Below, piece after piece: positions 9,782-34,649 of a stretch of 41,138 nucleotides of DNA. Origin of the DNA: Candidatus Barnesiella excrementipullorum (GTDB lineage Bacteria; Bacteroidota; Bacteroidia; Bacteroidales; Barnesiellaceae_A); assembly GCA_019114665.1 (NCBI GenBank), contig DXFB01000026.1:1-41138 (forward strand), written 5' to 3'. The notes under the pieces were generated by a model, which was not told the DNA's origin, searched no databases, and was given only the letters and a program-made list of their open reading frames with translations. Numbering within the stretch: the first letter of the stretch is position 1; each line of letters opens with the position of its first letter. The translations under genes were made by a program, and so were the position numbers.

Positions 9782-10618
9782 TTATCCGAGCTCTATCTGT
9801 TCTGCCACGATGTCGTCGTGCAGGAAGAGGGTTGCAGTCTCCATAAACTTGGCGGGCGACTCGGTTGTGAGATAGGTACACTCTCCGTGGCGTGAACAGG
9901 CCGACTCTATCTCGGGGTGCCGGCGCAGATAATCTTGCAGGCTGGCTGCTACGACATGGCCTTGCGATAGCAATGTGATGTGCGAGGGCAGGCTGGCGCG
10001 TATCTTGTCGTAAATCAGCGGGTAGTGTGTGCAGCCGAGGATGACGGTGTCGATGAGGCTGCTTTGTGCCAGAAGCGCATCGATATATTTCGTTACGAAG
10101 AAGTCGCACCCGGCATTATGAGTTTCGTTGTTCTCTATAAGGGGTACCCACATGGGGCAGGGCTGTCCGTAGAGTTGATAGTGGGGAAATAGTTTGGCAA
10201 CCTCGGCGGTATATGAGCCCGAGAGTACGGTTCCCGGCGTTGCCAGCAAACCTATGCAACCGGTGTGTGTCATGCCGCCAATGGCCTCTACGGTAGGGCG
10301 TATGACCCCCAAGACGCGGCGCGAGGCATCGATATGGGGCAGGTCGCACTGTTGTATGGTGCGCAGTGCCTTGGCCGATGCCGTGTTGCAAGCCAGGATG
10401 ACGAGGCGGCATCCGCGGTCGAAAAGATATTGTACCGCTTCTAAGGTGAAGCGATAGACAATCTCAAACGAGCGTGTGCCGTATGGGGCGCGTGCATTGT
10501 CGCCTACGTATATGTAGTCGTAGTCGGGCAGAAGGCGGCGAATCTCAGAGAGGATGGTAAGGCCTCCGTATCCCGAATCGAATACTCCGATAGGAGCGGG
10601 TGTTGCATGGGTTGTCAT
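9782..10618 (-). CDS. murI: Glutamate racemase
   Basis: Motifs present are IGVFDSGYGGLTIL, ACNTASA and GCTHYPL. The ORF is open to 10666, but that extension contains a terminator hairpin. The ATG at 10618 (MTTHATPAPIGVFDSG) gives a canonical N-terminus. Confidence 0.9.
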   Translation of the reverse strand: MTTHATPAPIGVFDSGYGGLTILSEIRRLLPDYDYIYVGDNARAPYGTRSFEIVYRFTLEAVQYLFDRGCRLVILACNTASAKALRTIQQCDLPHIDASRRVLGVIRPTVEAIGGMTHTGCIGLLATPGTVLSGSYTAEVAKLFPHYQLYGQPCPMWVPLIENNETHNAGCDFFVTKYIDALLAQSSLIDTVILGCTHYPLIYDKIRASLPSHITLLSQGHVVAASLQDYLRRHPEIESACSRHGECTYLTTESPAKFMETATLFLHDDIVAEQIELG

Positions 10619-10632
10619 AGGTGTATTGGTAC

Positions 10633-10666
10633 AAAAAACTGCGTCGGGGGAACTTCTCCCCGACAC
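10633..10666 (-). terminator. Intrinsic terminator or attenuator between ompH and murI
   Basis: The minus-strand RNA reads GUGUCGGGG-AGAAGUUC-CCCCGACGC followed by AGUUUUUUG. That gives a 7-9 bp GC-rich stem and a U6 tract. Confidence 0.7.
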
Positions 10667-10699
10667 AGCTTATCTCTTGACAGGCCTCGAAAGGTGCTG

Positions 10700-11209
10700 T
10701 TATTGTATTCCTAATTTGGCTTTTACAAGCGGCGTGATATCTTCGTTGCCAACGCCTTGGTAGAGTACAACGGGATAGGTGAGGTCGAAGATATAGGTAA
10801 ACTTGCCCTCTTCGCCCACTGCCTTGATAGCATCCATCAGTTTTTGTTGTATGGGGATGAAGAGCTCCTCTTGCTTCTTGGCGATGTCTTCCTGAGCCAT
10901 GGTACGGAAGCTCTCTATGCGTTGTTGCGACTCTTGTACCTCTTGCAGGCGGCGCATTCTTATCGTTTCGGGAACGGTGTCGCCTAAGGCTTGCAGTTCT
11001 TTATACTTGTTCTGAAACTCTTCTTGAACTTTGACAAATTCGTCTTCGTATTTCTTGGACAAGTCTTGCAACTGTTGCTCGGCTGCTGCACGCTCGGGCA
11101 TGGCAGCGATGATTTCGGCAGAATTGACTGTACCAAACTTGAAGGCAGTCTGCGCCATCAGACTCATGGGCAGGCAGCACAAAACGGCAATGATTAATTT
11201 TTTGAACAT
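10700..11209 (-). CDS. OmpH/Skp-family periplasmic chaperone
   Basis: 169 aa with signal peptide MFKKLIIAVLCCLPMSLMAQ. It has a coiled-coil body rich in E, Q and K and sits in the conserved position downstream of bamA. Confidence 0.85.
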   Translation of the reverse strand: MFKKLIIAVLCCLPMSLMAQTAFKFGTVNSAEIIAAMPERAAAEQQLQDLSKKYEDEFVKVQEEFQNKYKELQALGDTVPETIRMRRLQEVQESQQRIESFRTMAQEDIAKKQEELFIPIQQKLMDAIKAVGEEGKFTYIFDLTYPVVLYQGVGNEDITPLVKAKLGIQ

Positions 11210-11284
11210 GATATTTGTTTATATTTGTTTATATCTTTGTTTGACAGGCCGTAGCCTGTATGAAGCAGGCGCAAAGATAGTTAT

Positions 11285-11800
11285 TTATTTGGAATATCCC
11301 AACTTTGCGAGTACCTCGTTGCTAATATCGGCCTTGGGTGAGGCGAAAATGATGTTTCCCGACGAGGCGCGGTCGATAATCATCATGTAATTACGCTCCT
11401 CGGCAATCTTCTTCACGGCGTTGTATATCTCGTCCTGAATGGGTTTCATGAGGCTTTCGCGCTTTTTATACAGTTCGCCTTCGGGCCCGAAGTAGCGGCG
11501 GCGCAGCTCAGCTGCCTCTTGTTCCTTGGCCTGTACCTCATCGGCGCGTTGGGTTTTCATTTCGTCGGTGAGAAATACCAGGTCCGATTGGTAGTTCTTA
11601 TAGAGTGTTTCGGCTTCGGCGGCGAGGTCTTCGCACTCTTTTTGCCATCTTTTTGCCACTTGGTTGAGCTGTTCGTTTGCCATCTCATAGGCGGGTATGT
11701 TTTTCAGGATATACTCCATGTCTATGAGGGCGTATTTTTGAGCCGAAGCGCCTGCGGCGCATATTGCCCATAAGCAGGCTATCACAATAAGTCTCTTCAT
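11285..11800 (-). CDS. OmpH/Skp-family periplasmic chaperone (second copy)
   Basis: 171 aa with signal peptide MKRLIVIACLWAICAAGASAQ. It is a coiled-coil protein tandem with the other ompH gene. Confidence 0.85.
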   Translation of the reverse strand: MKRLIVIACLWAICAAGASAQKYALIDMEYILKNIPAYEMANEQLNQVAKRWQKECEDLAAEAETLYKNYQSDLVFLTDEMKTQRADEVQAKEQEAAELRRRYFGPEGELYKKRESLMKPIQDEIYNAVKKIAEERNYMMIIDRASSGNIIFASPKADISNEVLAKLGYSK

Positions 11801-11938
11801 AATCTCCTTGTTAAGGTTTTACAATCATACATATTTTGCGCTAAGAAAGCACGTAAAGATAACTACTTGCCGTCCATATCTATGAAAGATGGGTTGTGTT
11901 TTTATAGCATTTAACACTACGCGCTCCTTTTTTACACA

Positions 11939-14584
11939 TTAAAATTCTTGTCCGAGGATAAAGTGGAAGTGGCTTCCGCCTCGTTGTCCGAACACTTCGT
12001 CGAAGCCGTATGCCCAGTCGATACCCAGCAGACCTATCATAGGCAGGAATACGCGTACACCTACGCCGGCCGACCTTTTCATGGAGAAGGGGTTGAAGTC
12101 GCGGATGTCGGTCCATGCATTACCCGCCTCGGCAAAAGCAAGGCCGTATATGGTTGTGGAGGGTTGCAGCAGGAAGGGGAAGTGCAGCTCTAACGTGAAG
12201 CGCGTGTAGGCGTAGCCCTCGTAGCCCCACGGGGTGAAGGCTCCGTTGTCATATCCGCGCATACCGATTGTCTCGGTGGCGTATGTATAGGAGCCTGTCA
12301 TGCCGTCGCCACCCACATAGAAGGTCTCGAAAGGCGATTTCTTGTAGGGGTTGTAGCTGCCGAGCAAGCCGAAGTCGGCACGTGTCATGAGCACGAGCGT
12401 GTATTGGTTCTCGGGCGATGTGAGCGGCGTATAGGTACGGCTCTTGAATTTTATCTTGTAGTATTCTATCCAGCGGTACATCTCTTGGCGCGAGGCCTCG
12501 GTATTCTGTTGGGAGAGTGCCTTGTAGTCTTTCCCGTCGAAGAGCGAATAGGGCGGGGTGACTGTGGCCGAGAGCGAGAATTGCGAGCCGCGGCGTGTGT
12601 AGATGGGGTTGTCTATTGAGGTACGTGCCAGTGTCGCTCCAAGGGTGATACTGTGCGATACTCCGTTGTTCATGTAGTAGAGGTAGTCCCAGTCATCGAG
12701 GATATATGCCTGATAGCCGAGGTCGACCATGAAGGTGAAGTAGTCGTCGGGCCACGAGAGCCGTTTACCGAACGAGAAGTTGATACCGGCCATCTGCAAA
12801 GACTTGGAGGGGTCTATCGCGTTTTCCAGCTGTGCCTGATAATACGACTGGTCGTAGTAGCCTCCGTAACCGCCGTAGTAGCCTCCGTAGAGGTATGGGT
12901 TGTAATAGTTGTTGTTATAGAAAGAGCTTTCTATACCTGTCTGACGGCTATAATATGCCGATACCGAGAATGAGTTGGGGCGTTTGCCGCCAAACCACGG
13001 GTCGAAAAACGAGATACTGTATGCCTGATAGTATCGTGCGTTGGTTTGTGCACTGATGGTAAAGGTCTGCCCGTCTCCTTGCGGGATGATTCCCTTGTAG
13101 CTTTTGGGATTGAACAGGTTTCGCATGGAGAAGTTGGTAAACTTCAAGCTCAGCTTACCGATGATACCGGTCTGTCCCCATCCGGCGGAGAACTCTATCT
13201 GGTCATTCGATTTGCTGGTGAGGTTCAGTTCTATATCTACTGTACCGTTCTCGGGGTTGGGCTTGGGTTGTATATCCATCGACTCGGGGTCGAAGTGCCC
13301 CGTCTGCGCTATCTCGCGAGCCGAACGGATGAGGGCGCTCTTGTCGAAGAGTTCGCCCGGTTTGGTGCGGAGCTCGCGGCGTATCACATGCTCGTAGAGG
13401 CGGTCGTTGCCGTTGATGATGACTTTGTTGATGCGGGCCTGCGGTCCTTCGGTAATCATCATTTCGAGGTCGATGGAGTCGTTGGCGATATTGGTTTCGA
13501 GGGGGATGAGGTTGAAGAAGAGGTAGCCGCGGTCCATGTATAGGTTCGACACGGCGTCTTCGTCTTCATTGATACGTTTGTTGAGCAGTTTCTGGTTATA
13601 TACATCGCCGGGCTTCATGCCAAGGTATGCCGACAGTACATCGTTGGTATATATCGTGTTGCCTATCCATCTGATGTCGCGAATATGGTATTGGTCGCCC
13701 TCTTCGATGGAGATATATATGTCTACTTTGTTTTTGTCGTATGGCACAATGCTGTCGCACACGACGTAGGCGTCGCGATAACCTTTCTCGTTGTATTTCT
13801 CGGTAAGGACTTGCAGGTCGCTCTCAAAGTCGCTCTCGACAAATTTTTTCTGTTTGAAGATGGTGAAGATATTGTCGCGTTCGCTGGTCTTCTTCATAGC
13901 CCATTTGAGCTTGAAGTCAGAGAATACGTTGTTGCCTTTGAAGTATATGCGATGTACTTTTATTTTCTCGTTCTTATCGACGTTGATGTCGAGTATCACT
14001 TCGTTTTTGTGGGCCAGGTCTTCGTGTTGTATCAGGCGCACGTCGGCATTTTTGAAACCCTTTTCGTCGAAATATTTTTTGATAATCATCTCGGCGCGGT
14101 TCACGATATTGGGCGTTATCTGTTGCCCTTTTGCCAGTCCGAGGCGGGCTTCCAGGTCTTCGCGCTCGCCTTTTTTCACGCCGTTATAGTTGATTTGCGA
14201 GATGCGGGGTTGCGGCGTGAGTCTTATTTCGAGCCATGCTTTGTCGCCGTAGGCCTTTGTCCACAGGATAGCCACGTCTGAAAAAAGTCCTTGTCGCCAG
14301 AAACGCTTCAAGGCGTTGGTGATGTCATCGCCGGGGATTTCTATGCGTTGTCCTTTGGATAGTCCCGAGTAGCCGATGATGATATAATCTTCGTAGTTGT
14401 CGGCTCCGACAACCGTAATATCGGCTATTTCATATATTTGAGGCGTTTGTGAGTATACGACAGTGGGATTGTATATCGTGTCGGCTTCGACGGTCTGCGC
14501 TGCGCTGTATGGCGTGCAACAAACCGCGATAAGCATTGCGGCAAACAATATTTTTATTTTCTGTGACATGGATTTACTGAGCAT
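11939..14584 (-). CDS. bamA: Outer membrane protein assembly factor BamA (Omp85)
   Basis: 881 aa with a signal peptide. It has POTRA-like repeats (for example RIYFKGNNVFSD and IRWIGNTIYTNDVL), a C-terminal beta-barrel ending in GQEF, and uppS-bamA-ompH synteny. Confidence 0.9.
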   Translation of the reverse strand: MLSKSMSQKIKILFAAMLIAVCCTPYSAAQTVEADTIYNPTVVYSQTPQIYEIADITVVGADNYEDYIIIGYSGLSKGQRIEIPGDDITNALKRFWRQGLFSDVAILWTKAYGDKAWLEIRLTPQPRISQINYNGVKKGEREDLEARLGLAKGQQITPNIVNRAEMIIKKYFDEKGFKNADVRLIQHEDLAHKNEVILDINVDKNEKIKVHRIYFKGNNVFSDFKLKWAMKKTSERDNIFTIFKQKKFVESDFESDLQVLTEKYNEKGYRDAYVVCDSIVPYDKNKVDIYISIEEGDQYHIRDIRWIGNTIYTNDVLSAYLGMKPGDVYNQKLLNKRINEDEDAVSNLYMDRGYLFFNLIPLETNIANDSIDLEMMITEGPQARINKVIINGNDRLYEHVIRRELRTKPGELFDKSALIRSAREIAQTGHFDPESMDIQPKPNPENGTVDIELNLTSKSNDQIEFSAGWGQTGIIGKLSLKFTNFSMRNLFNPKSYKGIIPQGDGQTFTISAQTNARYYQAYSISFFDPWFGGKRPNSFSVSAYYSRQTGIESSFYNNNYYNPYLYGGYYGGYGGYYDQSYYQAQLENAIDPSKSLQMAGINFSFGKRLSWPDDYFTFMVDLGYQAYILDDWDYLYYMNNGVSHSITLGATLARTSIDNPIYTRRGSQFSLSATVTPPYSLFDGKDYKALSQQNTEASRQEMYRWIEYYKIKFKSRTYTPLTSPENQYTLVLMTRADFGLLGSYNPYKKSPFETFYVGGDGMTGSYTYATETIGMRGYDNGAFTPWGYEGYAYTRFTLELHFPFLLQPSTTIYGLAFAEAGNAWTDIRDFNPFSMKRSAGVGVRVFLPMIGLLGIDWAYGFDEVFGQRGGSHFHFILGQEF

Positions 14585-15340
14585 CTAAACTTTGTCGTTG
14601 TGTTGTATTTGTTCGCTTGTTTTCCCGAAACGGCGTTCGCGCTTTTGGTAATCGATAATGGCGCGGTAGAGGCTTTCGTCGGTGAAGTCGGGCCAGTACT
14701 CGTCGGTGAAGTAAAACTCGGCATACGCAAGTTGCCACAGCAGGAAGTTGCTGATGCGCAATTCTCCTCCGGTGCGTATGAGCAAATCGGGCTCGGGAAG
14801 CGATGCTGTGGTAAGGTACGAGGCGAAGAGCTTCTCGTCGATATGGCATGGGTCTGTGATGCCTTGCAGGACATCTTGCGCGATGTGTTGGGCCGCGGCG
14901 GCAATTTCCCATCGCGCGGAGTAACTCAATGCCAGATTCAGAACGATGCGTGTGCCGGCTGCTGTATCGTCGATACATTTTTGCAGCCGTTTCTGTACCT
15001 CGACAGGCATACGGGATGTGTCGCCTATCACTCCCAGCCTCACGCCGTTGGCTATCATGCCGGGTGTCTCGCGTTCGATACCGAAGACGACGAGCGACAT
15101 CAGGGCATCTACCTCTTCTTGGGGGCGATTCCAGTTTTCGGTCGAGAAGGCATATAACGTAAGACATTCCACCCCTATATCGGCAGCTGCATTGGTTATC
15201 TCGTGCACTACGTCGAGCCCTTTGCGGTGCCCTTGGGAGCGGTCGAGGTTTCGCTGTTTTGCCCACCGTCCGTTCCCGTCCATGATGATTGCTATATGGC
15301 GCGGTACGGTAGTTCTGTCTATTTTTTCTACAAGTGACAT
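14585..15340 (-). CDS. uppS: Isoprenyl transferase (undecaprenyl diphosphate synthase)
   Basis: Motifs HIAIIMDGNGRWA, TLYAFSTENW-RP, IRTGGE-R-SNFLLWQ-AY-E are present. Confidence 0.92.
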   Translation of the reverse strand: MSLVEKIDRTTVPRHIAIIMDGNGRWAKQRNLDRSQGHRKGLDVVHEITNAAADIGVECLTLYAFSTENWNRPQEEVDALMSLVVFGIERETPGMIANGVRLGVIGDTSRMPVEVQKRLQKCIDDTAAGTRIVLNLALSYSARWEIAAAAQHIAQDVLQGITDPCHIDEKLFASYLTTASLPEPDLLIRTGGELRISNFLLWQLAYAEFYFTDEYWPDFTDESLYRAIIDYQKRERRFGKTSEQIQHNDKV

Positions 15341-26293: not shown

Positions 26294-29254
26294 CTATAAG
26301 AGGCATCCCCGGCGGGCGATGTAGCGCAATAGTCGGGCATATATGGGCGATGTTTCGAGCAGTGTCCGGTACCCGATGATTACGATTTGTTCCCGGGCTC
26401 TTGTGATGGCAACGTTGAGTTTGCGGTCTATCGGCCTGCCCTCCTCTTCGCTGCACTGCGACAGGAATGCGAGTTGCTCGGCCGTGGTTACGGCGCACGA
26501 AAAGATGATGATGTCGTTTTGTGAGCCTTGGAATCGCTCTACGGTGTCGATGCGTATTTTGTCGCAATCGGGCAGTTGCAGCAACTCCAGCTGTTGCCGG
26601 ATGGCGGCTATCTGGTTGCGATAGGGGGTGATGATGCCTATGGCTTTCTCGGGATGGAGCCTGTTGCCGTTTCTCTCGTTGAGCTTGTAATAGGCCTCCG
26701 TCACTCGTGCCACGGCAAGAGCTTCGTTCAGGTTGGCCGTGTTTGCGGTTTCTGCGGTTGGCAATGCCGGCGGTTCTATATTGATGAATGCCAGGCGTGT
26801 AGTAGCGAGCATCTTCTCTTCGGCGCACATCCCTTCATAGGGTTTATAGGGCAGCGTTCTTCCTTGATGCTTTGCCCCGCCGGCCTTTAACTTGTTGTCA
26901 TAAAATGCCTCCGAAGCAAAATCGGCAATATCGGGGTGCATGCGCCACTGTCGCGACAGCATGCCTGTCAGTTGGGGGAAGGCGCAGTATCGGCGGTATA
27001 ACCGTTCGAAGAGCGACATGCGACAGTCGGTAAGACCACACTCGGCAAGGCATTCCTCTTCTATGCGCGACTCCGCCTCCTCTTGCAATACGATGGCGGG
27101 CAGTTGTTTGTGGTCGCCGATGAGTACAAAGCGTTCTATGGCGGGATGCCCTTTGCCGTCGGTGGCTGCCAGCAAGCCCAGGAGCTGTGTTTCGAGTAAC
27201 TGGGATGCTTCGTCGATAATGGCGGTGTCGAACTGTTTTATCCCGAATAATTCGGGTTTGGCCAGCAGCGAGACCAGCGATGCGACGTAGAGGCGGCAGC
27301 CGGCAAGGTGTTGTATCACTTCGTCGCGGCGGCGGCAGTCGGTGAGCCGGTTGTTGATGAGGCGGTGGCGATATGCCGCGGCGCAGGAGTTTTCCATGCC
27401 GATGCGGATATAGTCGAGCCCTTTTTCTTCCTCCAAGTGAGAGCAAATCTCATCGACAGCCCGATTGGTGTAGGCTACCAGTAACAGGTTGCGTTGTGGC
27501 GATGCCATGATTTCGCGCACCATGCTCATCAGTGCTACCGATGTCTTGCCGGTGCCGGGAGGGCCCATCAGCAGGTAGATTTCGCCGTCACCGGCAGCCG
27601 TGGTCACGATTTGCTCTATCTCTTCCGATGCGTAGGGGTAAGAGGGCTTTATGGGAGTACCTATGCGGGGACGGTAGTCGCCCTGCCCCAGCAGCAGGCG
27701 GCGGCGTGGCTCGGGTGCCTGCAAGAAGGCGAAGAGTCCGGCAAATTGCATTTTGAAGGTCATGTCGGAATAGTCGGCCTCTAACACATAGAGGTCGCCG
27801 CAGATAAAGAGTGTGCGGCTTTGCTGCCTGTCGCGCAGGCGCACCACGACTTCGCCCGAGGTTACGGTCGCGATTACACCGCGAAACAGGATGTTGTCGG
27901 CGGCCCGGCTTGTTTCGTCGCCGTAACGATATAGCAGCACGATGTCGCCGTCGCGGAATTTGGGCATGGCCGTCTCTGTCTCTTGCCTGTATGAGAAGCG
28001 TAAGAGCGGGTTTTCGTCGCCGGCATGACTCTCTTGCAGAGAAAGAGGTGCCATAATGCAGCCCAAGGCGCGTTTCTCGGCAATGGAGGCTTGCCATAGT
28101 GCGGTCGTGCCCGTGTGTTCGGCGGTCGTGCGCGATACTTTCGACAGATACTGCTCCCGCGAAAGGAAACGATAGAAGCGGTCGAAATAGCGTGCCGAAA
28201 CCTCATCGGCGCTGAATCGGCGCAATGAGGCGCTTACTTGATACAGGTCGTTCTCGACATATCGCACCAAGGGGTGGGAGGGCTGTTCGTATGCAGGATG
28301 CTCCATAGCCTCTGTCAAGGTGCGCAGCGGGTGCTTGTCGGTCGTATAGCGAAGCTCTTCCAGAACGATTCTGTTGCGCACGCCTATGGCCTGTTGCATA
28401 AGCGGGAGCGACAGATGGTTCTTGACCAGTGAGTCTTGCTCGTAGCGCGAGTAGAGTGCATAAAAGTCGGGGTGTTCTACCCCCAGCGAGTAGTGGAGCA
28501 TGAGTTGGTAGAGGGAGAGTTGCACCCGGTGCGTATCGACGATGTATCCGCCCGACTTTTTGCCCGATTTCAATTCGATGCCGGCGGCTTGTCGGCCGTC
28601 GGTCTGCAAAAAGTCGAGCCGCCCGCGCAACCCTAAGGCCGGAGAGATGAATGTGGGCTCTGTTATACCCTCGCTGCATCGGAGAGAGGCTTTGGGGAAC
28701 TCCTGTTTTACGGCTTGCAGCAGATGTTTGTGGTGTAAGGCCAGGTCGGTAAAGAACGAGGCATCGATGTCGTCGCACACGGCATATTCCAACGGCGATG
28801 AGAGGAAAACTTTCTTTATTGCATCGGCGAGTTCCACCGAGTCGGGGGTGTCGGCATTGACCATCTCGTCGAAAATGAGGTTGGCGGCATTTCCCAACAA
28901 GATGTGGCGGTTGAGGTGCCGGGGACGCATGCGGTCGGCAAAATAGAGCTGCCACAGGTGGCCGAAGGTGCGGCAGCATTCGGCCAGGAGGCTGACGTCA
29001 ATCAGGAAGTCGGGCTCTGCTACGATAAACCGCGGTAGGAGGGAGATGCCGTCGTCGGTGGCATCGAGCAGGTGCAGCTTGTTGCCCGGTTGCAGCAGCG
29101 GGAGGTAGCCGCCCGTTGCGAGGTCGCCCCCCATCAATGAGATGCGACGCTCCGTATTGTCGGAGCGTCGCACTCTTATTTCGTGGCTCTCCACAGCTTG
29201 CACTACGGCATATAGGCACGAAGTGTGGGGTTGCTGCGGGGCATGCACATCCAT
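26294..29254 (-). CDS. PD-(D/E)xK nuclease fused to an SF1B (Dna2/Upf1-like) helicase
   Basis: The nuclease motifs are GRLD (D214), IELKSGK (E227, K229) and QLSLYQLM. The helicase motifs are GPPGTGKT (aa 564-571), IIDEASQ, LIGDHKQLPA, RMHPDI, TVERFQGSQNDIIIFS and NVAITRAR. Confidence 0.85.
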   Translation of the reverse strand: MDVHAPQQPHTSCLYAVVQAVESHEIRVRRSDNTERRISLMGGDLATGGYLPLLQPGNKLHLLDATDDGISLLPRFIVAEPDFLIDVSLLAECCRTFGHLWQLYFADRMRPRHLNRHILLGNAANLIFDEMVNADTPDSVELADAIKKVFLSSPLEYAVCDDIDASFFTDLALHHKHLLQAVKQEFPKASLRCSEGITEPTFISPALGLRGRLDFLQTDGRQAAGIELKSGKKSGGYIVDTHRVQLSLYQLMLHYSLGVEHPDFYALYSRYEQDSLVKNHLSLPLMQQAIGVRNRIVLEELRYTTDKHPLRTLTEAMEHPAYEQPSHPLVRYVENDLYQVSASLRRFSADEVSARYFDRFYRFLSREQYLSKVSRTTAEHTGTTALWQASIAEKRALGCIMAPLSLQESHAGDENPLLRFSYRQETETAMPKFRDGDIVLLYRYGDETSRAADNILFRGVIATVTSGEVVVRLRDRQQSRTLFICGDLYVLEADYSDMTFKMQFAGLFAFLQAPEPRRRLLLGQGDYRPRIGTPIKPSYPYASEEIEQIVTTAAGDGEIYLLMGPPGTGKTSVALMSMVREIMASPQRNLLLVAYTNRAVDEICSHLEEEKGLDYIRIGMENSCAAAYRHRLINNRLTDCRRRDEVIQHLAGCRLYVASLVSLLAKPELFGIKQFDTAIIDEASQLLETQLLGLLAATDGKGHPAIERFVLIGDHKQLPAIVLQEEAESRIEEECLAECGLTDCRMSLFERLYRRYCAFPQLTGMLSRQWRMHPDIADFASEAFYDNKLKAGGAKHQGRTLPYKPYEGMCAEEKMLATTRLAFINIEPPALPTAETANTANLNEALAVARVTEAYYKLNERNGNRLHPEKAIGIITPYRNQIAAIRQQLELLQLPDCDKIRIDTVERFQGSQNDIIIFSCAVTTAEQLAFLSQCSEEEGRPIDRKLNVAITRAREQIVIIGYRTLLETSPIYARLLRYIARRGCLL

Positions 29255-29267
29255 ATCTTGCAGAAGC

Positions 29268-30458
29268 TTATTTTCTGAGTTTTCCGCCTTTGGTACCGCC
29301 TTTCACGCCATTGCCGAGGGCGAAGATGTTTTGTGAGTAACTTACGGTTTTATGGGCTTGCTCGCGTTTCCGCTTCAAGGCGAGCGATACCAGCTTGTCC
29401 ATCAATTCGTCGAAAGGTACGCCGGTGGCCTCCCACAGATAGAAGGAGAACGAGCCCGGGATGGCGTTTATTTCGTTGACATATATGGCTCCCGAGTTGT
29501 CGTCGATCATCACGTCGACACGAGCCACGCCGTGGCACGAAAGCACGCGGAATGTCTCGCCGGCAAAGAAGCGTACCCGTTGTGTTTGCTCCTCTGAGAG
29601 GTCGGCCGGGATGCGTTTTTCGCTGGCTTGCATACCGCTCTCGCCTTTGCTGCCGCCCATGTATTTGTCCTCGTACGAGAGAATCTTGCCGCTCTTGATG
29701 GGCTCCTCGCATACCGAGGTGGCGTAGTCGTCACAGTCGCCCAATACCGAGCAGTTGATCTCTTTGAGGTTCTCTACCAAATCTTCTACGATGAGGCGTG
29801 TAGAGTAACGGCTGGCCTCTTCGACTTTTGTAATCAGTTCCTGGCGGTTGTCGGCGCGGGCAATGCCTACGCTCGACCCTAAGTTGGCAGGCTTTACGAT
29901 GACCGGATACCCTATCTTGCGCTCTATCTCCTCTACCCACTTGTCGCGAGTCGTAGCCCACTGCTTGTCGGTGAACCATACATAGTCTACCACGGGGATG
30001 CCGCTGTGTTCGAGCACCATCTTCATGACAATCTTATCCATGCCTATGGCTGCCGAGAGGGTGTCGCAGCCGGCAAAGGGGATGCCGATAGTCTCTAATA
30101 GGCCCTGAAATACGCCGTCTTCGCCGTTCGTGCCGTGCAGTGCCGGGATGACTACGTCGAGGGTCGCTGCAACGGGCGAGCCGAAAAGCGGTTTCTTGCG
30201 CCGGTAGAGGTTGTAATCGCCATACTCGGGATTCATGTACACCTCTTCGCAGCGGCTTTTCAGGGCTGCCATATCTTTGTAGTTCGATACCGACAGGAGA
30301 GGCTCGCCACTGTACCAGCGTCCCTCTTTCGATATATATATCGGTATGATGTTGTAGCGTGAAGCATCTATGGCATACATGGCTTGCAGTGCTGTCAGTA
30401 CCGATATCTCATGCTCTACCGACCTGCCGCCGAAGAATACGCCTATTGTCGTTTTCAT
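29268..30458 (-). CDS. D-alanine--D-alanine ligase family ATP-grasp enzyme (long, DdlA-like, atypical)
   Basis: Motifs present are GGRSVEHEISV, VIVKPANLGSSVGI, SYEDKY, ARVDVM and VNEINAIPG. It has an inserted omega-loop segment and a Gly/Lys-rich C-terminal tail. Length is 396 aa. Confidence 0.85.
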   Translation of the reverse strand: MKTTIGVFFGGRSVEHEISVLTALQAMYAIDASRYNIIPIYISKEGRWYSGEPLLSVSNYKDMAALKSRCEEVYMNPEYGDYNLYRRKKPLFGSPVAATLDVVIPALHGTNGEDGVFQGLLETIGIPFAGCDTLSAAIGMDKIVMKMVLEHSGIPVVDYVWFTDKQWATTRDKWVEEIERKIGYPVIVKPANLGSSVGIARADNRQELITKVEEASRYSTRLIVEDLVENLKEINCSVLGDCDDYATSVCEEPIKSGKILSYEDKYMGGSKGESGMQASEKRIPADLSEEQTQRVRFFAGETFRVLSCHGVARVDVMIDDNSGAIYVNEINAIPGSFSFYLWEATGVPFDELMDKLVSLALKRKREQAHKTVSYSQNIFALGNGVKGGTKGGKLRK

Positions 30459-30490: not shown

Positions 30491-32086
30491 TTATTTGAAT
30501 GTGTCGGGCAGGTCGTTTTCATACAGTACCACATCGCCGGCACGGGCTATCTCTACCAGGCGGGCTTGTGCCGTGGCAAAACTGTCGGCGCAGAAGACGC
30601 CCTCTACCTTCATGCCTCCTGCTTGTAATCCTTCGAGGATGTCATCTCTGTTGTATGTGCCCACGACCATGACATAATCTGCAACTTTCGCCATTTGTTC
30701 GCCGAACCGGCGGTTGTATTCGGCCTGTTTGTTGCCCAGCTCTATCATGCCCGGGGTAATGACGATGCGGCGCGTTGCCCGCACGCGGCGCAATACATCG
30801 AGGGCCATGCGAGCTCCGTCGGGGTTGGAGTTGAAGGCGTCGTCGATGATGGAGAGCCCTCCGGGGGCACGCTTGATGTTGAGGCGGTGTTCGACCTGTT
30901 CTATGCGGCTCACGGCATAGCGTATGGCCTCTTCGGGCACATTCAGGTGCAAGGCCGCGATGACGGCGGCCATGAGGTTCGAGAGGTTGCAGTCGCCCAC
31001 CAGTTGAGTCGTTAGCGGCAGCCTGTGCCCGCCTCCTACGATGGTAAAACGGGTCTCTATCTCATCGTAAACAATATCTTCTACATGGTAGTCGGCCTTC
31101 CCGGCTTCGAGGGCATAACGCAGCACGGGTACGTTGGTGACAGGTCGTGAGGCTACGTAGGGGAAATCGTTGTTGAGTATGCCCAGCCCGTCGGAGGGAA
31201 GGGCGTCGATGAGTTCGAATTTGGTGCGCTGTACGTTCTCTATCGTTTTGAACGACTCCAAATGTTGTTCGCCTACCGCGGTGACAATGCCTATCGATGG
31301 AGCCACGAGGTCGCATATCTCCTTGATGTCGCCTATCTGCTTGGCGCCCATCTCTACAATGAAGATGTCGTAGTAGGGTTTCATCATTTCGCGTACGGTG
31401 CGTATCACACCCATGGGGGTGTTGTAGCTGCCCGGGGTCATGATGACGTTGTATTTCTCGCTGAGGATGCGGTAGAGATAGTGCTTGGTGCTGGTCTTGC
31501 CGTAGCTGCCTGTAATACCTATGATGGTGAGGTGCGGCATGTCGGCGAGGATTTTTTTCGCCTCATTATAGAACCCGCGGTTTATCAGTTTCTCGACAGG
31601 TATCATGAGGGTATTGGCACACAGCATCATTACCCAGGGGAAGGCAAGGGTTGCTATCAGTGTAAGGGCGGTTGCATATTGCTGTGCATCGGTGGGGAAA
31701 ATGGCTGCTATGGCAATGGTTACTATCGTAGTCACTACCCATGTTGCCACATAGAGCCTTGTGGCGCGGTGTGTGAATACCACAGGTTTTTTGTAGCGGG
31801 TGCGCAGCTCCCTGACGGCAAAGAGGATGAGGGCAATGGCAATAACGGCTTCGATAACCGTTGTGGCAAAGGGGGCGAAACTCGAACCGTAGAGCAGAAG
31901 CAGAAAGTAGAGGGTGAGGCTTCGCGGCGAAGAGAGGATGCCGCTGTTGCGCAGCCACCGCAGGTATCGGTTGTTGCGGTAGGAGTTTTGTTGCATCATT
32001 TGCAATTCGTAGCGCAGCGCCACAAAGAGGTAGAACAGCAGCGCAATCGTGAATATTACATGTACAATGGTGTGAATCAATTGCAT
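30491..32086 (-). CDS. MurF-like Mur ligase with a polytopic N-terminal membrane domain in place of the UDP-MurNAc-binding domain
   Basis: Residues 1-165 form 4-5 hydrophobic helices. These are followed by IIGITGSYGKTSTK (P-loop), FIVEMGAKQIGDI, TAVGEQHLESF, IIDDAFNSNPDG and ITPGMIELG, which are the MurF central and C-terminal signatures. Confidence 0.8.
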   Translation of the reverse strand: MQLIHTIVHVIFTIALLFYLFVALRYELQMMQQNSYRNNRYLRWLRNSGILSSPRSLTLYFLLLLYGSSFAPFATTVIEAVIAIALILFAVRELRTRYKKPVVFTHRATRLYVATWVVTTIVTIAIAAIFPTDAQQYATALTLIATLAFPWVMMLCANTLMIPVEKLINRGFYNEAKKILADMPHLTIIGITGSYGKTSTKHYLYRILSEKYNVIMTPGSYNTPMGVIRTVREMMKPYYDIFIVEMGAKQIGDIKEICDLVAPSIGIVTAVGEQHLESFKTIENVQRTKFELIDALPSDGLGILNNDFPYVASRPVTNVPVLRYALEAGKADYHVEDIVYDEIETRFTIVGGGHRLPLTTQLVGDCNLSNLMAAVIAALHLNVPEEAIRYAVSRIEQVEHRLNIKRAPGGLSIIDDAFNSNPDGARMALDVLRRVRATRRIVITPGMIELGNKQAEYNRRFGEQMAKVADYVMVVGTYNRDDILEGLQAGGMKVEGVFCADSFATAQARLVEIARAGDVVLYENDLPDTFK

Positions 32087-32880
32087 GATGATTGTTTGTT
32101 ATATATATCTTCTTTGAGGAATGCCATGACTATGGCTCTGAAACGGAATGGATTGTCGAGGAACGAATAGTGCCCGGCATCGTCGATGACCGCTAAGTCG
32201 GCGTGGGGGATGAGCCGCAGCATTACCCGTGCTTCACGCAGCGGTGTGGCGCTATCTTTGGCTCCCCATATCAGTTGCACGGGGCATTTGATGAGGGGCA
32301 TCACGGTTTCGAGGTATTCGTTGACTACTTTTACAAAGATGCGGCGCATCATGCCGTCTACGGCGTTATAGTCGGCCGAGCCTGCCGAGCGGCGCATTTT
32401 TTCCAAACGTTGCTCGGCTTTCTCTTTCCCTAAGAGGAGGCGGAGCAGCTGTTTACCGAGTTTGTATGTATAGACTTTGTAATAATACTTCAACGACCGG
32501 CGAGGCTTTGCTCCGGCGGCATCTGCCAATATTACTTTATGTGTATGGTTGCGCGATGCGTAGAGGATAGAGACCCGTCCGCCGAAAGAGTGCCCTATCA
32601 AGGTGGGCGATTCTATGCCGAGGGCTGCAACAAAGGCTTCGAGCATGCGGGTATATTCTTCTACGCCCCACACGGAGGAGGGTGTCTCGCTCCCGCCGAA
32701 GCCGGGAAAATCGAGTGAATATACCGTGAAATGCGGCGATAGCATGCTCTCTATCGAGGCGAGAGTGGTCATATTGCATCCCCAGCCGTGCAGCAATATC
32801 ACTGCACGTCCCGAACCGCACACTTTGTACTGTACTTCGGTGTCGCAGAGTTTTATACGGGTTGTTGTTGCGCCTTGCAT
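32077..32880 (-). CDS. Alpha/beta-fold hydrolase
   Basis: Motifs present are ILLHGWGCN, the nucleophile elbow GHSFGG (Ser98) and a C-terminal DDAGHYSF (His). It overlaps the start of the MurF-like gene by 10 nt. Confidence 0.8.
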   Translation of the reverse strand: MQGATTTRIKLCDTEVQYKVCGSGRAVILLHGWGCNMTTLASIESMLSPHFTVYSLDFPGFGGSETPSSVWGVEEYTRMLEAFVAALGIESPTLIGHSFGGRVSILYASRNHTHKVILADAAGAKPRRSLKYYYKVYTYKLGKQLLRLLLGKEKAEQRLEKMRRSAGSADYNAVDGMMRRIFVKVVNEYLETVMPLIKCPVQLIWGAKDSATPLREARVMLRLIPHADLAVIDDAGHYSFLDNPFRFRAIVMAFLKEDIYNKQSSCN

Positions 32881-32963: not shown

Positions 32964-34010
32964 TTACAGGCTTGTGTGCCCAAGCACTTTTTCGACCACG
33001 CGCTCGGGCCTGATTGCTCTCAGGCAGGCATAGTCGCCTCTGTAACAAGGCTTATTGCCGAAGACCGAACAGGGACGGCATGGCAAGTCGCTTTGTATGA
33101 CGTCGGCCGGAGAGGCGGTGTACCCCAAAAATCCGGCATAGGGGTGTGTAGCTCCCCATACAGATACAACCGGAACGCCGGCCAGTGCGGCCAGGTGCAT
33201 GTTGGCAGAATCCATCGAGAGCATCACGTCGAGGTAGCTCATCAGGGATAGTTCTACCTTGAACCCGAGGCGTTGTGATGCCAATGAGATGACTCGCGGA
33301 TAGCGTTCCTGCCACCGGGCGAGGAGTTCGGCTTCGCTGCCGGCACCGAAGAGGAAGATGTGCAGCCTTTCGTGCCGACTTAACAGCGCTACGACGCGCT
33401 CCATTTCGTCGGGAGGGTATATCTTCCCTTCGTGTTTGGCAAAGGGTGCGATGCCTATCCAATATTCTCCCTCCTTTTTGGGGGGCGTTAGGGCGGACAA
33501 TAGCCCGGCATCGCCTTTCCCCTCGGGGTATAGAGTTGTGAATTGTGGGGTATAAGGCATTGACATGGCCCTGAAAACGTCGGCATAACGTTCGGCCATA
33601 GGCTTCAAGGGGTGTAATTCTTTGTGGTGCCGGCTGGTGAGCTGCCTTTTGGATGCGCGCCCTTTGTCGATGACAAAGGTGGGCTTTCCGGCCAGGCGGA
33701 AGAGCAGGCGGAGTGTCTTCGTGCGTAAAACATTGTGCAAATCGGCCACGGCATCGATGCCCAAGGCCGATAGCTCTTTATATAATAACCACAGCCCAGC
33801 CATCCCTTTGTGCCGGGCTTTTACGTCGGCGATATATATTTGCAGATTGGCGGGAGCATACATGAAGAGTGATGACGTTACCCGTTGTGTCAGGATTACA
33901 AATGTGGTCTCGGAATAGGCTCGACATACCGAATATATTTGCGGTATGGTCATGGCCACGTCGCCTAACGCCGACAGGCGCATGACAAGCACTTTCTTAT
34001 ATGTTGTCAC
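32964..34010 (-). CDS. Glycosyltransferase family 9 (heptosyltransferase-like)
   Basis: KVLVMRLSALGDVAMTIP is the typical GT9 N-terminus. The C-terminal half has MDSANMHLAALAGVPVVSVWG. Length is 348 aa. Confidence 0.85.
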   Translation of the reverse strand: MTTYKKVLVMRLSALGDVAMTIPQIYSVCRAYSETTFVILTQRVTSSLFMYAPANLQIYIADVKARHKGMAGLWLLYKELSALGIDAVADLHNVLRTKTLRLLFRLAGKPTFVIDKGRASKRQLTSRHHKELHPLKPMAERYADVFRAMSMPYTPQFTTLYPEGKGDAGLLSALTPPKKEGEYWIGIAPFAKHEGKIYPPDEMERVVALLSRHERLHIFLFGAGSEAELLARWQERYPRVISLASQRLGFKVELSLMSYLDVMLSMDSANMHLAALAGVPVVSVWGATHPYAGFLGYTASPADVIQSDLPCRPCSVFGNKPCYRGDYACLRAIRPERVVEKVLGHTSL

Positions 34011-34043
34011 AAGGCTGCTGTTTATCGCTTATGCCCCTGTCGG

Positions 34044-34649
34044 TTACTTCTTCCCGTATAGTATGGGATTGAGTGCGGGGTCGTTATACATTTTCATCTG
34101 TTTATACACCTTCATATACTTATGTCCGGCTGCAATGTCGGCAATCAGCTGGTCTATCGCCGTGGATAGGTCTTCGCGTTGTTGCAGCAGTACGGCAAGT
34201 TTGGCGCGGCACTTCTCTATGTGCTCTTCCGAGGCGTCGTTTCGCTCTACCTCTTGTTGCATGTGATATATCTTCAATGCCAATATAGACAGGCGGTCTA
34301 TGGCCCAAGCCGGGCTTTCGGTATTGATGGTGGCATCGGGCAGGGGGGTAACCGCTTTGTACAGGTCGAGGAAGTAGCTGTCTATCAGCTCTACGAGGTC
34401 GGTACGGTCTTGGTTGGAGCGGTCGATGCGACGCTTGATGGCCAATGCCTCTATCGGGTCGATGTCGGGATTGCGGATGATGTCTTCCAAATGCCATTGC
34501 ACGGCATCGATCCAGTTCTTGGTGAACAGGAGGTTTTCTATTGTACACTCGGGGTAGGGATTCTCTACATGGGCATTTACGTCGTCGTGTTTGTGATACA
34601 ACGCTGTCGTAGCCTCGAATATATGGTTACATGTTTCGCTGATGCTCAT
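34044..34649 (-). CDS. DUF4254-like all-helical protein of unknown function
   Basis: 201-aa ORF with no signal peptide. It lies 33 nt upstream of the GT9 gene, a pairing I recall as typical for DUF4254. The family assignment is from memory and is not verified. Confidence 0.6.
   Translation of the reverse strand: MSISETCNHIFEATTALYHKHDDVNAHVENPYPECTIENLLFTKNWIDAVQWHLEDIIRNPDIDPIEALAIKRRIDRSNQDRTDLVELIDSYFLDLYKAVTPLPDATINTESPAWAIDRLSILALKIYHMQQEVERNDASEEHIEKCRAKLAVLLQQREDLSTAIDQLIADIAAGHKYMKVYKQMKMYNDPALNPILYGKK

Follow-up and report, generated by a model that had tools for sequence, protein, structure and literature searches.

The cytoplasmic Mur pathway is, to our knowledge, regarded as fully mapped, and its enzyme MurF as a soluble protein of three domains, the first of which (domain 1) is distinct from the Rossmann-like domain of MurC and MurD. 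In glycopeptide-resistance and producer clusters, extra MurF copies of the MurF2 type act as a second MurF serving a dedicated D-Ala-D-X ligase. The poly-gamma-glutamate synthase PgsB/CapB, an amide ligase belonging to the Mur ligase family, acts at the membrane with PgsC, a small multi-helix membrane component, and cyanophycin synthetase combines ATP-grasp with Mur-like domains. A further non-canonical type, likewise found in Bacteroidales and linked to D-alanine, is the fusion of a MurF-like ligase with alanine racemase (PRK11930; Porphyromonas gingivalis PG1097), which retains domain 1 and the KGSR end of MurF and carries the racemase at its C-terminus. In MurT of the MurT/GatD complex, a Mur ligase homolog that acts on Lipid II, the N-terminal domain that binds uridine diphosphate (UDP) is absent; MurT handles its lipid-linked precursor at the inner face of the membrane, and its closest structural relatives are MurF enzymes (PMC6113224). 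MurT is itself soluble, with a short disordered N-terminus, a Cys4 insertion, a C-terminal domain of the DUF1727 type and GatD as its partner. The window analyzed here, the 41,138 nucleotides of contig DXFB01000026.1 from Candidatus Barnesiella excrementipullorum (Bacteroidales; assembly GCA_019114665.1), carries on its minus strand an open reading frame (ORF; 30491..32086) for a 531-residue ligase in which domain 1 of MurF is replaced by a membrane domain, and which is referred to below as the membrane ligase.

Judged by the sequence of its catalytic domains, the protein is a Mur ligase of the MurF branch. Pfam recognizes in it solely the central, ATP-binding domain (PF08245, Mur_ligase_M; residues 191-378, 30953..31516, minus strand, E 4.4e-41), followed by the C-terminal domain, which ends in ENDLPDTFK (PF02875, Mur_ligase_C; residues 400-521, 30524..30889, minus strand, E 4.3e-15), both above their gathering scores. 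No family scores higher than MurF, which also gives the best structural match; the enzymes of Escherichia coli (1GG4), Streptococcus pneumoniae (2AM1) and Pseudomonas aeruginosa (4CVK) agree best in sequence, hidden Markov model (HMM) and structure over residues 185-531. Of the 418 positions of the NCBIfam murF profile (TIGR01143), only 73-402 are matched, and the score of 230.1 bits falls short of the cut-off of 288.6; a homolog from Gorillibacterium likewise remains below that cut-off at 268.9 bits.

The part of MurF that these matches omit is missing from the protein. Sequences of MurF in the PDB align only from about residue 99 of their chains onward, and an AlphaFold model built from the family alignment (mean predicted local distance difference test, pLDDT, 85.6) contains nothing except helices up to residue 181, with about 360 columns alone of that model aligning to MurF structures in Foldseek. 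When the N-terminal domain is modeled by itself (pLDDT 90.7, predicted template modeling score 0.82), its Foldseek comparison with the PDB yields nothing better than E 0.41, a Pfam search at E<=10 returns scattered noise and no family, and hhalign gives a probability of 0.14% for its profile against that of canonical domain 1, that is, no similarity. Domain 1 has thus been replaced by the membrane domain, as a preliminary description of this DNA had proposed, and HMM, PDB alignment, structure prediction and profile comparison agree on the point; neither the structure prediction nor the profile comparison reveals a cryptic UDP-binding fold.

The membrane domain corresponds to codons 1-165 of the ORF (31592..32086), where the same description had placed four to five transmembrane (TM) helices separated by basic loops. 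A Kyte-Doolittle scan (19-residue windows, mean >=1.6) puts all strongly hydrophobic windows inside residues 1-162 and none in the other 369 residues, and resolves five helices within this segment (31601..32074, minus strand; supported also by family-averaged hydropathy, positive-inside counts and AlphaFold): TM1, residues 5-24 (32015-32074); TM2, 57-73 (31868-31918); TM3, 75-93 (31808-31864); TM4, 112-131 (31694-31753); and TM5, 139-162 (31601-31672), all on the minus strand. The hydrophobic stretches and basic loops singled out beforehand are present, and the P-loop GITGSYGKTSTK, at residue 190, lies 28 residues past the last helix, close to the earlier figure of about 25. AlphaFold places its helices at residues 2-33, 54-67, 71-95, 106-129, 132-148 and 150-181, and the five hydrophobic segments are kept across an alignment of 31 family members. 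In these members the loops differ sharply in charge, with on average 6.3 Lys and Arg residues in loop 25-56 and 6.8 in loop 94-111, as against 0 in loop 73-76 and 0.4 in loop 131-140. By the positive-inside rule, the N-terminus is predicted to face outward and the ligase domains to lie in the cytoplasm, where an ATP-dependent enzyme needs to be.

Conservation within the membrane domain is concentrated in polar and basic residues of the cytoplasmic loops, whereas the helix sequences themselves are variable, a distribution consistent with an anionic lipid head group being bound there. The first conserved segment, LQMMQQNSYRNxRYxRW, follows TM1 (residues 28-44; 31955..32005, minus strand); M30, Q32, N34, Y36, R37, N38, R40 and W44 are invariant in alignments A1 and A2, and the motif is still recognizable among Firmicute members. 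The second, YKKPLVFTxRAxRLY, follows TM3 (residues 98-112; 31751..31795, minus strand), with K99, V103, F104, T105, R107 and R110 invariant in the same two alignments and KKPL..T.R..R retained in alignment A3. The third comprises the end of TM5 and a long connecting helix, ANxLMxPVExxIN...A..L..MP (residues 157-184; 31535..31618, minus strand; from alignment and model), in which N158, P163, E165, I168, N169, A176 and L180 do not vary; in the AlphaFold model an unbroken helix spans residues 150-181 and is succeeded by the first strand of the ligase domain at residues 187-192. R37, R40, K99, K100, R107 and R110 would thereby lie at the interface of membrane and cytoplasm beside the start of the catalytic domains, their distance to the acceptor cleft being inferred from topology.

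Similar comparisons can be drawn for the catalytic half, using canonical MurF from E. coli, Acinetobacter baumannii, Staphylococcus aureus, Bacteroides finegoldii and Phocaeicola massiliensis. With these enzymes the membrane ligase shares the P-loop, the Glu in EMGA, the His in QHL, the Arg in HRL and the motifs GxxNxxN, DDAFNSNP and GMxELG, a conservation that takes in catalytic and dipeptide-side motifs of MurF, and the Lys of TKFEL aligns with the carbamylated Lys of MurF; among members of the membrane ligase family, GSYGKTS, EMGAK, GEQHL, TKFEL, HRL, DDAFNSNP and GMIELG are invariant. Other parts have changed. The acceptor-side loop of MurF, GNxNNxIGxP, reads GS(Y/F)NT(P)MG throughout the family, the Asn of NxxxAHL is replaced by Thr or Ser, and the KGSR motif with its terminal helix gives way to ENDLPDxF/Y at the extreme C-terminus. 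The preliminary claim that the MurF-specific motifs are intact therefore holds for EMGA, TAVGEQHLE, DDAFNSNP and GMIELG, but not for the acceptor-side loop or the KGSR end, while its suggestion that the enzyme is probably active and recognizes its acceptor differently appears reasonable, given the conserved catalytic machinery. On this evidence the membrane ligase looks catalytically competent, with both of its substrate pockets apparently remodeled. It is not filed here as a MurF because three defining features of MurF are wanting: domain 1, a score above the family cut-off, and the motifs of the acceptor side and the C-terminus.

The architecture recurs widely. When 1.84 billion representative proteins were searched with an HMM built from the N-terminal domain, 1,595 clusters (50% identity) matched at E<=1e-3; among the listed matches of at least 480 residues, 52 of 54 have a P-loop at about residue 147-217, and nearly all 54 finish in an end of the ENDLPDxF/Y type. 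The two exceptions, in which the membrane domain is joined to other enzymes (P0169, a D5 primase; P0128, a thiamine pyrophosphate enzyme), are chimeras produced by element insertion or by assembly, so that in the listed matches the domain, searched for on its own, otherwise always accompanies this ligase and is not shared with other enzymes. P0169 (locus L082, 1287-2915) has the membrane domain in frame with a D5-type primase, with the usual hydrolase before it and an SNF2 helicase and HNH gene after it, an arrangement resembling a mobile element inserted in the ligase gene or else an assembly chimera. A word-index search with the N-terminal 184 residues by themselves gave four truncated fragments only.

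Homologs that match over the full length at 55-99% identity are found in genomes of Barnesiella, Muribaculaceae and other Bacteroidales; when Lachnospiraceae, Oscillospirales and Paenibacillaceae are taken in beside Barnesiella and Muribaculaceae, the full-length architecture is conserved over 33-99% identity. The more distant members, at 33-50% identity, belong to Clostridiales, Lachnospiraceae, Faecalibacterium, Ruminococcus, Acutalibacteraceae, Butyrivibrio and Paenibacillaceae, the last including the isolate Gorillibacterium sp. sgz5001074, and the carriers are mostly gut or rumen anaerobes. No curated Pfam or NCBIfam model covers the membrane domain or the architecture above its cut-off, and literature searches returned no description of such a family; in NCBI its members are labeled either MurF (UDP-N-acetylmuramoyl-tripeptide--D-alanyl-D-alanine ligase) or "Mur ligase family protein". 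By sequence comparison, then, the architecture is that of a conserved family and not of a fusion artifact.

At the level of codons, the region encoding the membrane domain behaves as part of the gene. In codons 1-185 the closest homolog differs by 48 synonymous and 34 non-synonymous substitutions, which indicates that this part is translated and under selection, more loosely than the catalytic part, where the corresponding figures are 90 and 25. Candidate start codons lie at 32080-32086: the ATG at 32086, which overlaps the end of the upstream hydrolase gene by 10 nucleotides and has its first in-frame stop 5 codons to the 5' side, and a TTG two codons downstream, at 32080, which other gene callers prefer and at whose equivalent a 99%-identical database protein (P0001, 529 residues) begins. 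The choice between them is a small correction that has no effect on the findings. A 302-residue ORF lies antisense to the membrane-domain region (31262-32170, plus strand) and is most likely a spurious frame opposite the real gene.

The membrane ligase gene is the middle member of a conserved module. Directly upstream is a gene for an alpha/beta hydrolase of 267 residues (32077..32880, minus strand; Pfam Abhydrolase_1/6, Hydrolase_4), and downstream is one for a D-Ala-D-Ala ligase (Ddl) paralog of 396 residues (29268..30458, minus strand). In 80 Bacteroidales genome loci the hydrolase directly precedes the ligase wherever the contig reaches, and a Ddl of 391-400 residues directly follows it in about 65; among another 80 loci, from metagenomes, about 66 of the 71 with room for it have the hydrolase upstream, and about 58 of 70 have Ddl downstream. 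The triad is found in Firmicute contigs too, among them those of a spore-former, one beside mreBCD-pbp2 and Gorillibacterium, and one Gram-negative contig lacks the hydrolase at its ligase locus. Clustering of the neighbors in about 170 loci of Bacteroidales and Firmicutes showed three recurrent families and no more: the hydrolase, the ligase and the 391-400-residue Ddl. The next commonest neighbors (DnaJ, an ABC ATPase and a PlsC acyltransferase) are lineage-specific and present in at most 11 loci each.

This clustering yielded no conserved fourth gene. Two neighbors of 294 residues are unrelated to each other, and the PlsC acyltransferase and the alternate Lipid II flippase Amj were set aside as lineage-specific. 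The PlsC-type gene lies convergent right after the Ddl gene in one Firmicute clade (L083, 8798-9526; L121, L127, L134, L149), and Amj (PF10997) 3.8 kb downstream of the triad in Gorillibacterium sp. (L094, 15426-16238), a single case that may be coincidence. An anti-phage defense role was dropped, PADLOC giving no match for the three module proteins. Rfam detects no leader or riboswitch upstream of the module, and the module was not found among the plasmids of PLSDB.

In the hydrolase, HGWG, GHSFGG and the Ser/Asp/His triad are invariant; among solved structures the membrane phospholipase PlaF (6i8w) comes nearest, with a weak match (E 1.5e-19). The downstream protein scores above the family cut-offs for Ddl (NF002528, 329 bits against 262; TIGR01205, 275.6 against 245.65) and keeps the omega-loop Lys-Tyr of D-Ala-D-Ala ligases, its SYEDKY aligning with YKSKY of S. 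aureus Ddl. Straight after this Lys-Tyr the family has a conserved insertion of 8 residues with an invariant GM (KY-MGGSKGESGMQASEKR-IPA), and at its C-terminus a conserved Gly/Lys-rich tail, SYxQNIF..G.KGG.K, which is missing from S. aureus Ddl. The insertion and the tail could alter specificity, or serve in binding to the membrane or to a partner.

Around the module the window contains genes of other kinds. Directly upstream, on the same strand, are genes for a GT9 (heptosyltransferase-like) protein and a DUF4254 protein (32964-34649, minus strand), a neighborhood common only to the closest relative, L001, and thus outside the conserved module. On the other side is a 986-residue protein (26294-29254, minus strand) with a PD-(D/E)XK nuclease domain and an SF1 helicase, whose C-terminal half matches the PADLOC models for Mokosh MkoA/MkoC (E 1.8e-58), and which elsewhere adjoins the module only in L001. 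About 20 kb away, an envelope gene cluster typical of Bacteroidales (9782-15340, minus strand) comprises uppS, a protein with POTRA repeats (BamA-like), two OmpH/Skp genes and an Asp/Glu racemase-family gene, probably for glutamate racemase, and confirms a chromosomal Bacteroidales context.

Set beside the described systems, the membrane ligase shares with MurF the P-loop, the Mg-binding Glu and His, the equivalent of the carbamylated Lys, the C-terminal Arg, the DDxxNxNP and GMxELG motifs and the linkage to Ddl, and differs from it in having five membrane helices for domain 1, a score below the family cut-off, another loop and another C-terminal end, and a hydrolase with which it is almost always paired. 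It is most like MurT in dispensing with domain 1, yet it is not a MurT: it is membrane-integral and scores 22.8 bits on the MurT model NF045635 (cut-off 800), and neither GatD nor another amidotransferase is among the recurrent neighbors in the clustering. No PgsB/CapB model matched it and no PgsC or PgsA genes neighbor it, while its catalytic domains are MurF-like and its partner is a Ddl. Against the PRK11930 fusion it reaches 149 bits (cut-off 804), and it has no racemase domain; the alignment with canonical MurF sequences also took in the fusion of P. massiliensis for direct comparison. The MurF2-type copies, of which examples from actinomycete plasmids are present in PLSDB, are ordinary soluble MurFs of three domains, whereas around the membrane module no genes of the vanH/vanX type recur.

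From the established architecture, topology pattern, conservation, catalytic residues and gene linkage, we infer a dipeptide, an acceptor and a role for the hydrolase. Five helices would anchor the ligase with its N-terminus outside, the membrane standing in for the UDP-binding domain; the three conserved Lys/Arg-rich cytoplasmic segments would sit at the membrane surface, and the long last helix, running into the ATP-binding domain, would hold the active-site cleft against the inner face of the membrane. The Ddl paralog would supply the incoming dipeptide, D-Ala-D-Ala or a close variant, and the hydrolase, as the tighter partner, would most likely free the carboxylate that the ligase activates. 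The ligase would phosphorylate this carboxylate of a membrane-embedded acceptor with ATP and then join the dipeptide to it. The likeliest acceptor would be undecaprenyl-pyrophosphoryl-N-acetylmuramic acid (MurNAc)-tripeptide, that is, Lipid I or Lipid II minus its D-Ala-D-Ala end, and the module would in this way complete or repair the stem peptide of lipid-linked peptidoglycan precursors. We give a probability of about 0.45 to the proposal that the ligase joins a Ddl-made dipeptide to a membrane-embedded acceptor, most likely the one just named. What argues most strongly for a lipid-linked muropeptide is a structural precedent: MurT, active on Lipid II, likewise dispenses with domain 1, and in complexes of MurE and MurF the pyrophosphate of the substrate lies at the boundary of domains 1 and 2, the place where Lipid II would emerge from the membrane, and domain 1 would therefore clash with the bilayer (PMC6113224). 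In the membrane ligase the last TM helix joins precisely at this boundary and is flanked by conserved basic loops, which would suit a lipid-linked muropeptide acceptor.

Several observations weigh against this proposal. Since the GNxNNxIGxP loop and the KGSR region are altered, acceptor and incoming substrate could both differ from those of MurF. The nearest relatives of the hydrolase are lipases and esterases and not peptidases, and over the roughly 170 clustered loci no peptidoglycan gene is consistently linked to the module. Some Muribaculaceae, moreover, have the hydrolase and the ligase with no Ddl within 4-8 kb downstream, from which it follows that the hydrolase-ligase pair is the core of the module. 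These are loci L059, L067, L077, L065, L069, L009, L025 and L042; the genes that come after the ligase there encode a DinB-type polymerase, RecQ and a FadL-like protein, unrelated to the module.

Other explanations distribute the same evidence differently. It could be that a gene for a small membrane protein has been fused in frame to a truncated murF, with the ligase itself started at an internal Met; Met codons do occur at residues 153, 154, 161 and 183, and two database proteins carry the N-terminal domain as chimeras with unrelated enzymes. Such an artifact is nevertheless extremely improbable, because the ORF is single and uninterrupted in more than 160 loci from two phyla, so that no separate-ORF reading is needed, because the N-terminal codon substitutions show purifying selection, and because residues 157-184, the best-conserved stretch of the N-terminal part, connect the membrane and ligase portions as a continuous helix; a ligase begun at Met183 would in any case lack domain 1. 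A weightier possibility, although an unlikely one in our estimate, is that the ligase is the carriers' own MurF and the adjacent Ddl their housekeeping Ddl, with the membrane domain merely tethering the enzyme near MraY and the basic loops serving in place of domain 1 as the binding site for the UDP-diphosphate of soluble UDP-MurNAc-tripeptide. In its favor, the catalytic residues are all retained; NCBI annotates many members with the full MurF name; murF and ddl are adjacent in many Firmicutes, with ddl directly upstream of murF in S. aureus; members from Bacteroidales and Firmicutes share 33-45% identity, as housekeeping orthologs typically do; and the roughly 170 loci around members, each only about 20 kb, contain no canonical MurF or second Mur ligase. 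Related Bacteroidales, Oscillospirales and Paenibacillaceae, however, have canonical MurF with domain 1. In a comparison set made up of chromosome pieces filed as plasmids in PLSDB, it was seen in Phocaeicola, B. finegoldii, Prevotella, Subdoligranulum variabile, Monoglobus pectinilyticus and Paenibacillus cellulosilyticus, and that of P. massiliensis, at 431 residues, lies beside folP and cdaA (L088, 3725-5020). On another such piece the same species has an 821-residue MurF-like/alanine racemase fusion of the type known from P. gingivalis (L092, 2935-5400), which the PLSDB resistance-gene prediction labels "vanT". The housekeeping interpretation must further accommodate a patchy distribution across phyla, a recurrent three-gene cassette whose hydrolase has no role in the classical pathway, a score below the murF cut-off, altered acceptor-side and C-terminal motifs, and a distinctive Ddl subtype with its insertion and tail. 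An accessory system is favored because canonical MurF is present in the same orders and families and because the module is spread patchily across phyla as a fixed cassette. The sequence comparisons thus suggest that the membrane module is an extra system and not the housekeeping enzyme, the canonical MurF having been seen in related taxa.

The acceptor, too, may have been misjudged. It could be a membrane carboxylate outside peptidoglycan: perhaps a fatty acid set free by the lipase-like hydrolase, or else an N-acyl amino-acid lipid, phosphatidylserine or a bile acid. In that case the ligase would cap a lipid with a dipeptide of the D-Ala-D-Ala type. No partner is as constant as the hydrolase, whose closest relatives are found among lipases and esterases, including the EstV family and the phospholipase A1 PlaF (6i8w); the acceptor-side loop of MurF is not conserved, the carriers are chiefly gut and rumen anaerobes, and in one Firmicute clade the PlsC-type acyltransferase adjoins the module. 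We nonetheless consider this distinctly unlikely: the hydrolase resembles these enzymes only weakly (114 bits against a cut-off of 300; PDB E 1.5e-19), MurF is clearly the closest of all Mur ligases to the catalytic domains, the one conserved supplier is a Ddl, an enzyme whose product is not otherwise known to serve anything but peptidoglycan, and neighbor clustering links no lipid-synthesis gene consistently to the module. A split, membrane-bound polymer synthase, with Mur-like and ATP-grasp parts as in cyanophycin synthetase or PgsB/PgsC and the hydrolase as depolymerase, is far harder to credit. The inventory of ATP-grasp protein, Mur-like ligase, membrane part and hydrolase resembles such systems, models of cyanophycin synthetase give weak partial matches (47.6 bits, residues 264-475), and CphA1 is among the distant Foldseek matches; but 47.6 bits on TIGR02068 is far below its cut-off of 850 and no PgsB/CapB model is among the matches, the ATP-grasp partner passes the cut-off of its family as a genuine Ddl and has the Lys-Tyr typical of D-Ala-D-Ala ligases, and the membrane domain has tiny external loops and matches no transporter fold.

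Whether the membrane ligase acts on lipid-linked precursors or serves as the carriers' MurF, automatic annotation as MurF or "Mur ligase family protein" hides a distinct, large enzyme family that crosses phyla. Were it the carriers' only MurF, domain 1 would be shown to be dispensable or replaceable. If lipid-linked precursors are instead its substrate, as we propose, the completion or repair of stem peptides at the membrane would constitute a new enzymatic step, the membrane ligase would be the second Mur ligase, after MurT, to work on Lipid II, and the lipid carrier could be a further site at which a step assumed to involve the soluble UDP precursor only takes place or is repaired. Tentatively, gut Bacteroidales and many Clostridia may possess a hitherto unrecognized membrane-level branch of peptidoglycan precursor metabolism, in which the hydrolase trims the stem peptide of Lipid I or Lipid II and the ligase re-extends it with a locally made dipeptide of the D-Ala-D-Ala type. 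With such a role at the level of the lipid, the module might also help to determine how sensitive abundant gut commensals are to D-cycloserine, beta-lactams or glycopeptides.

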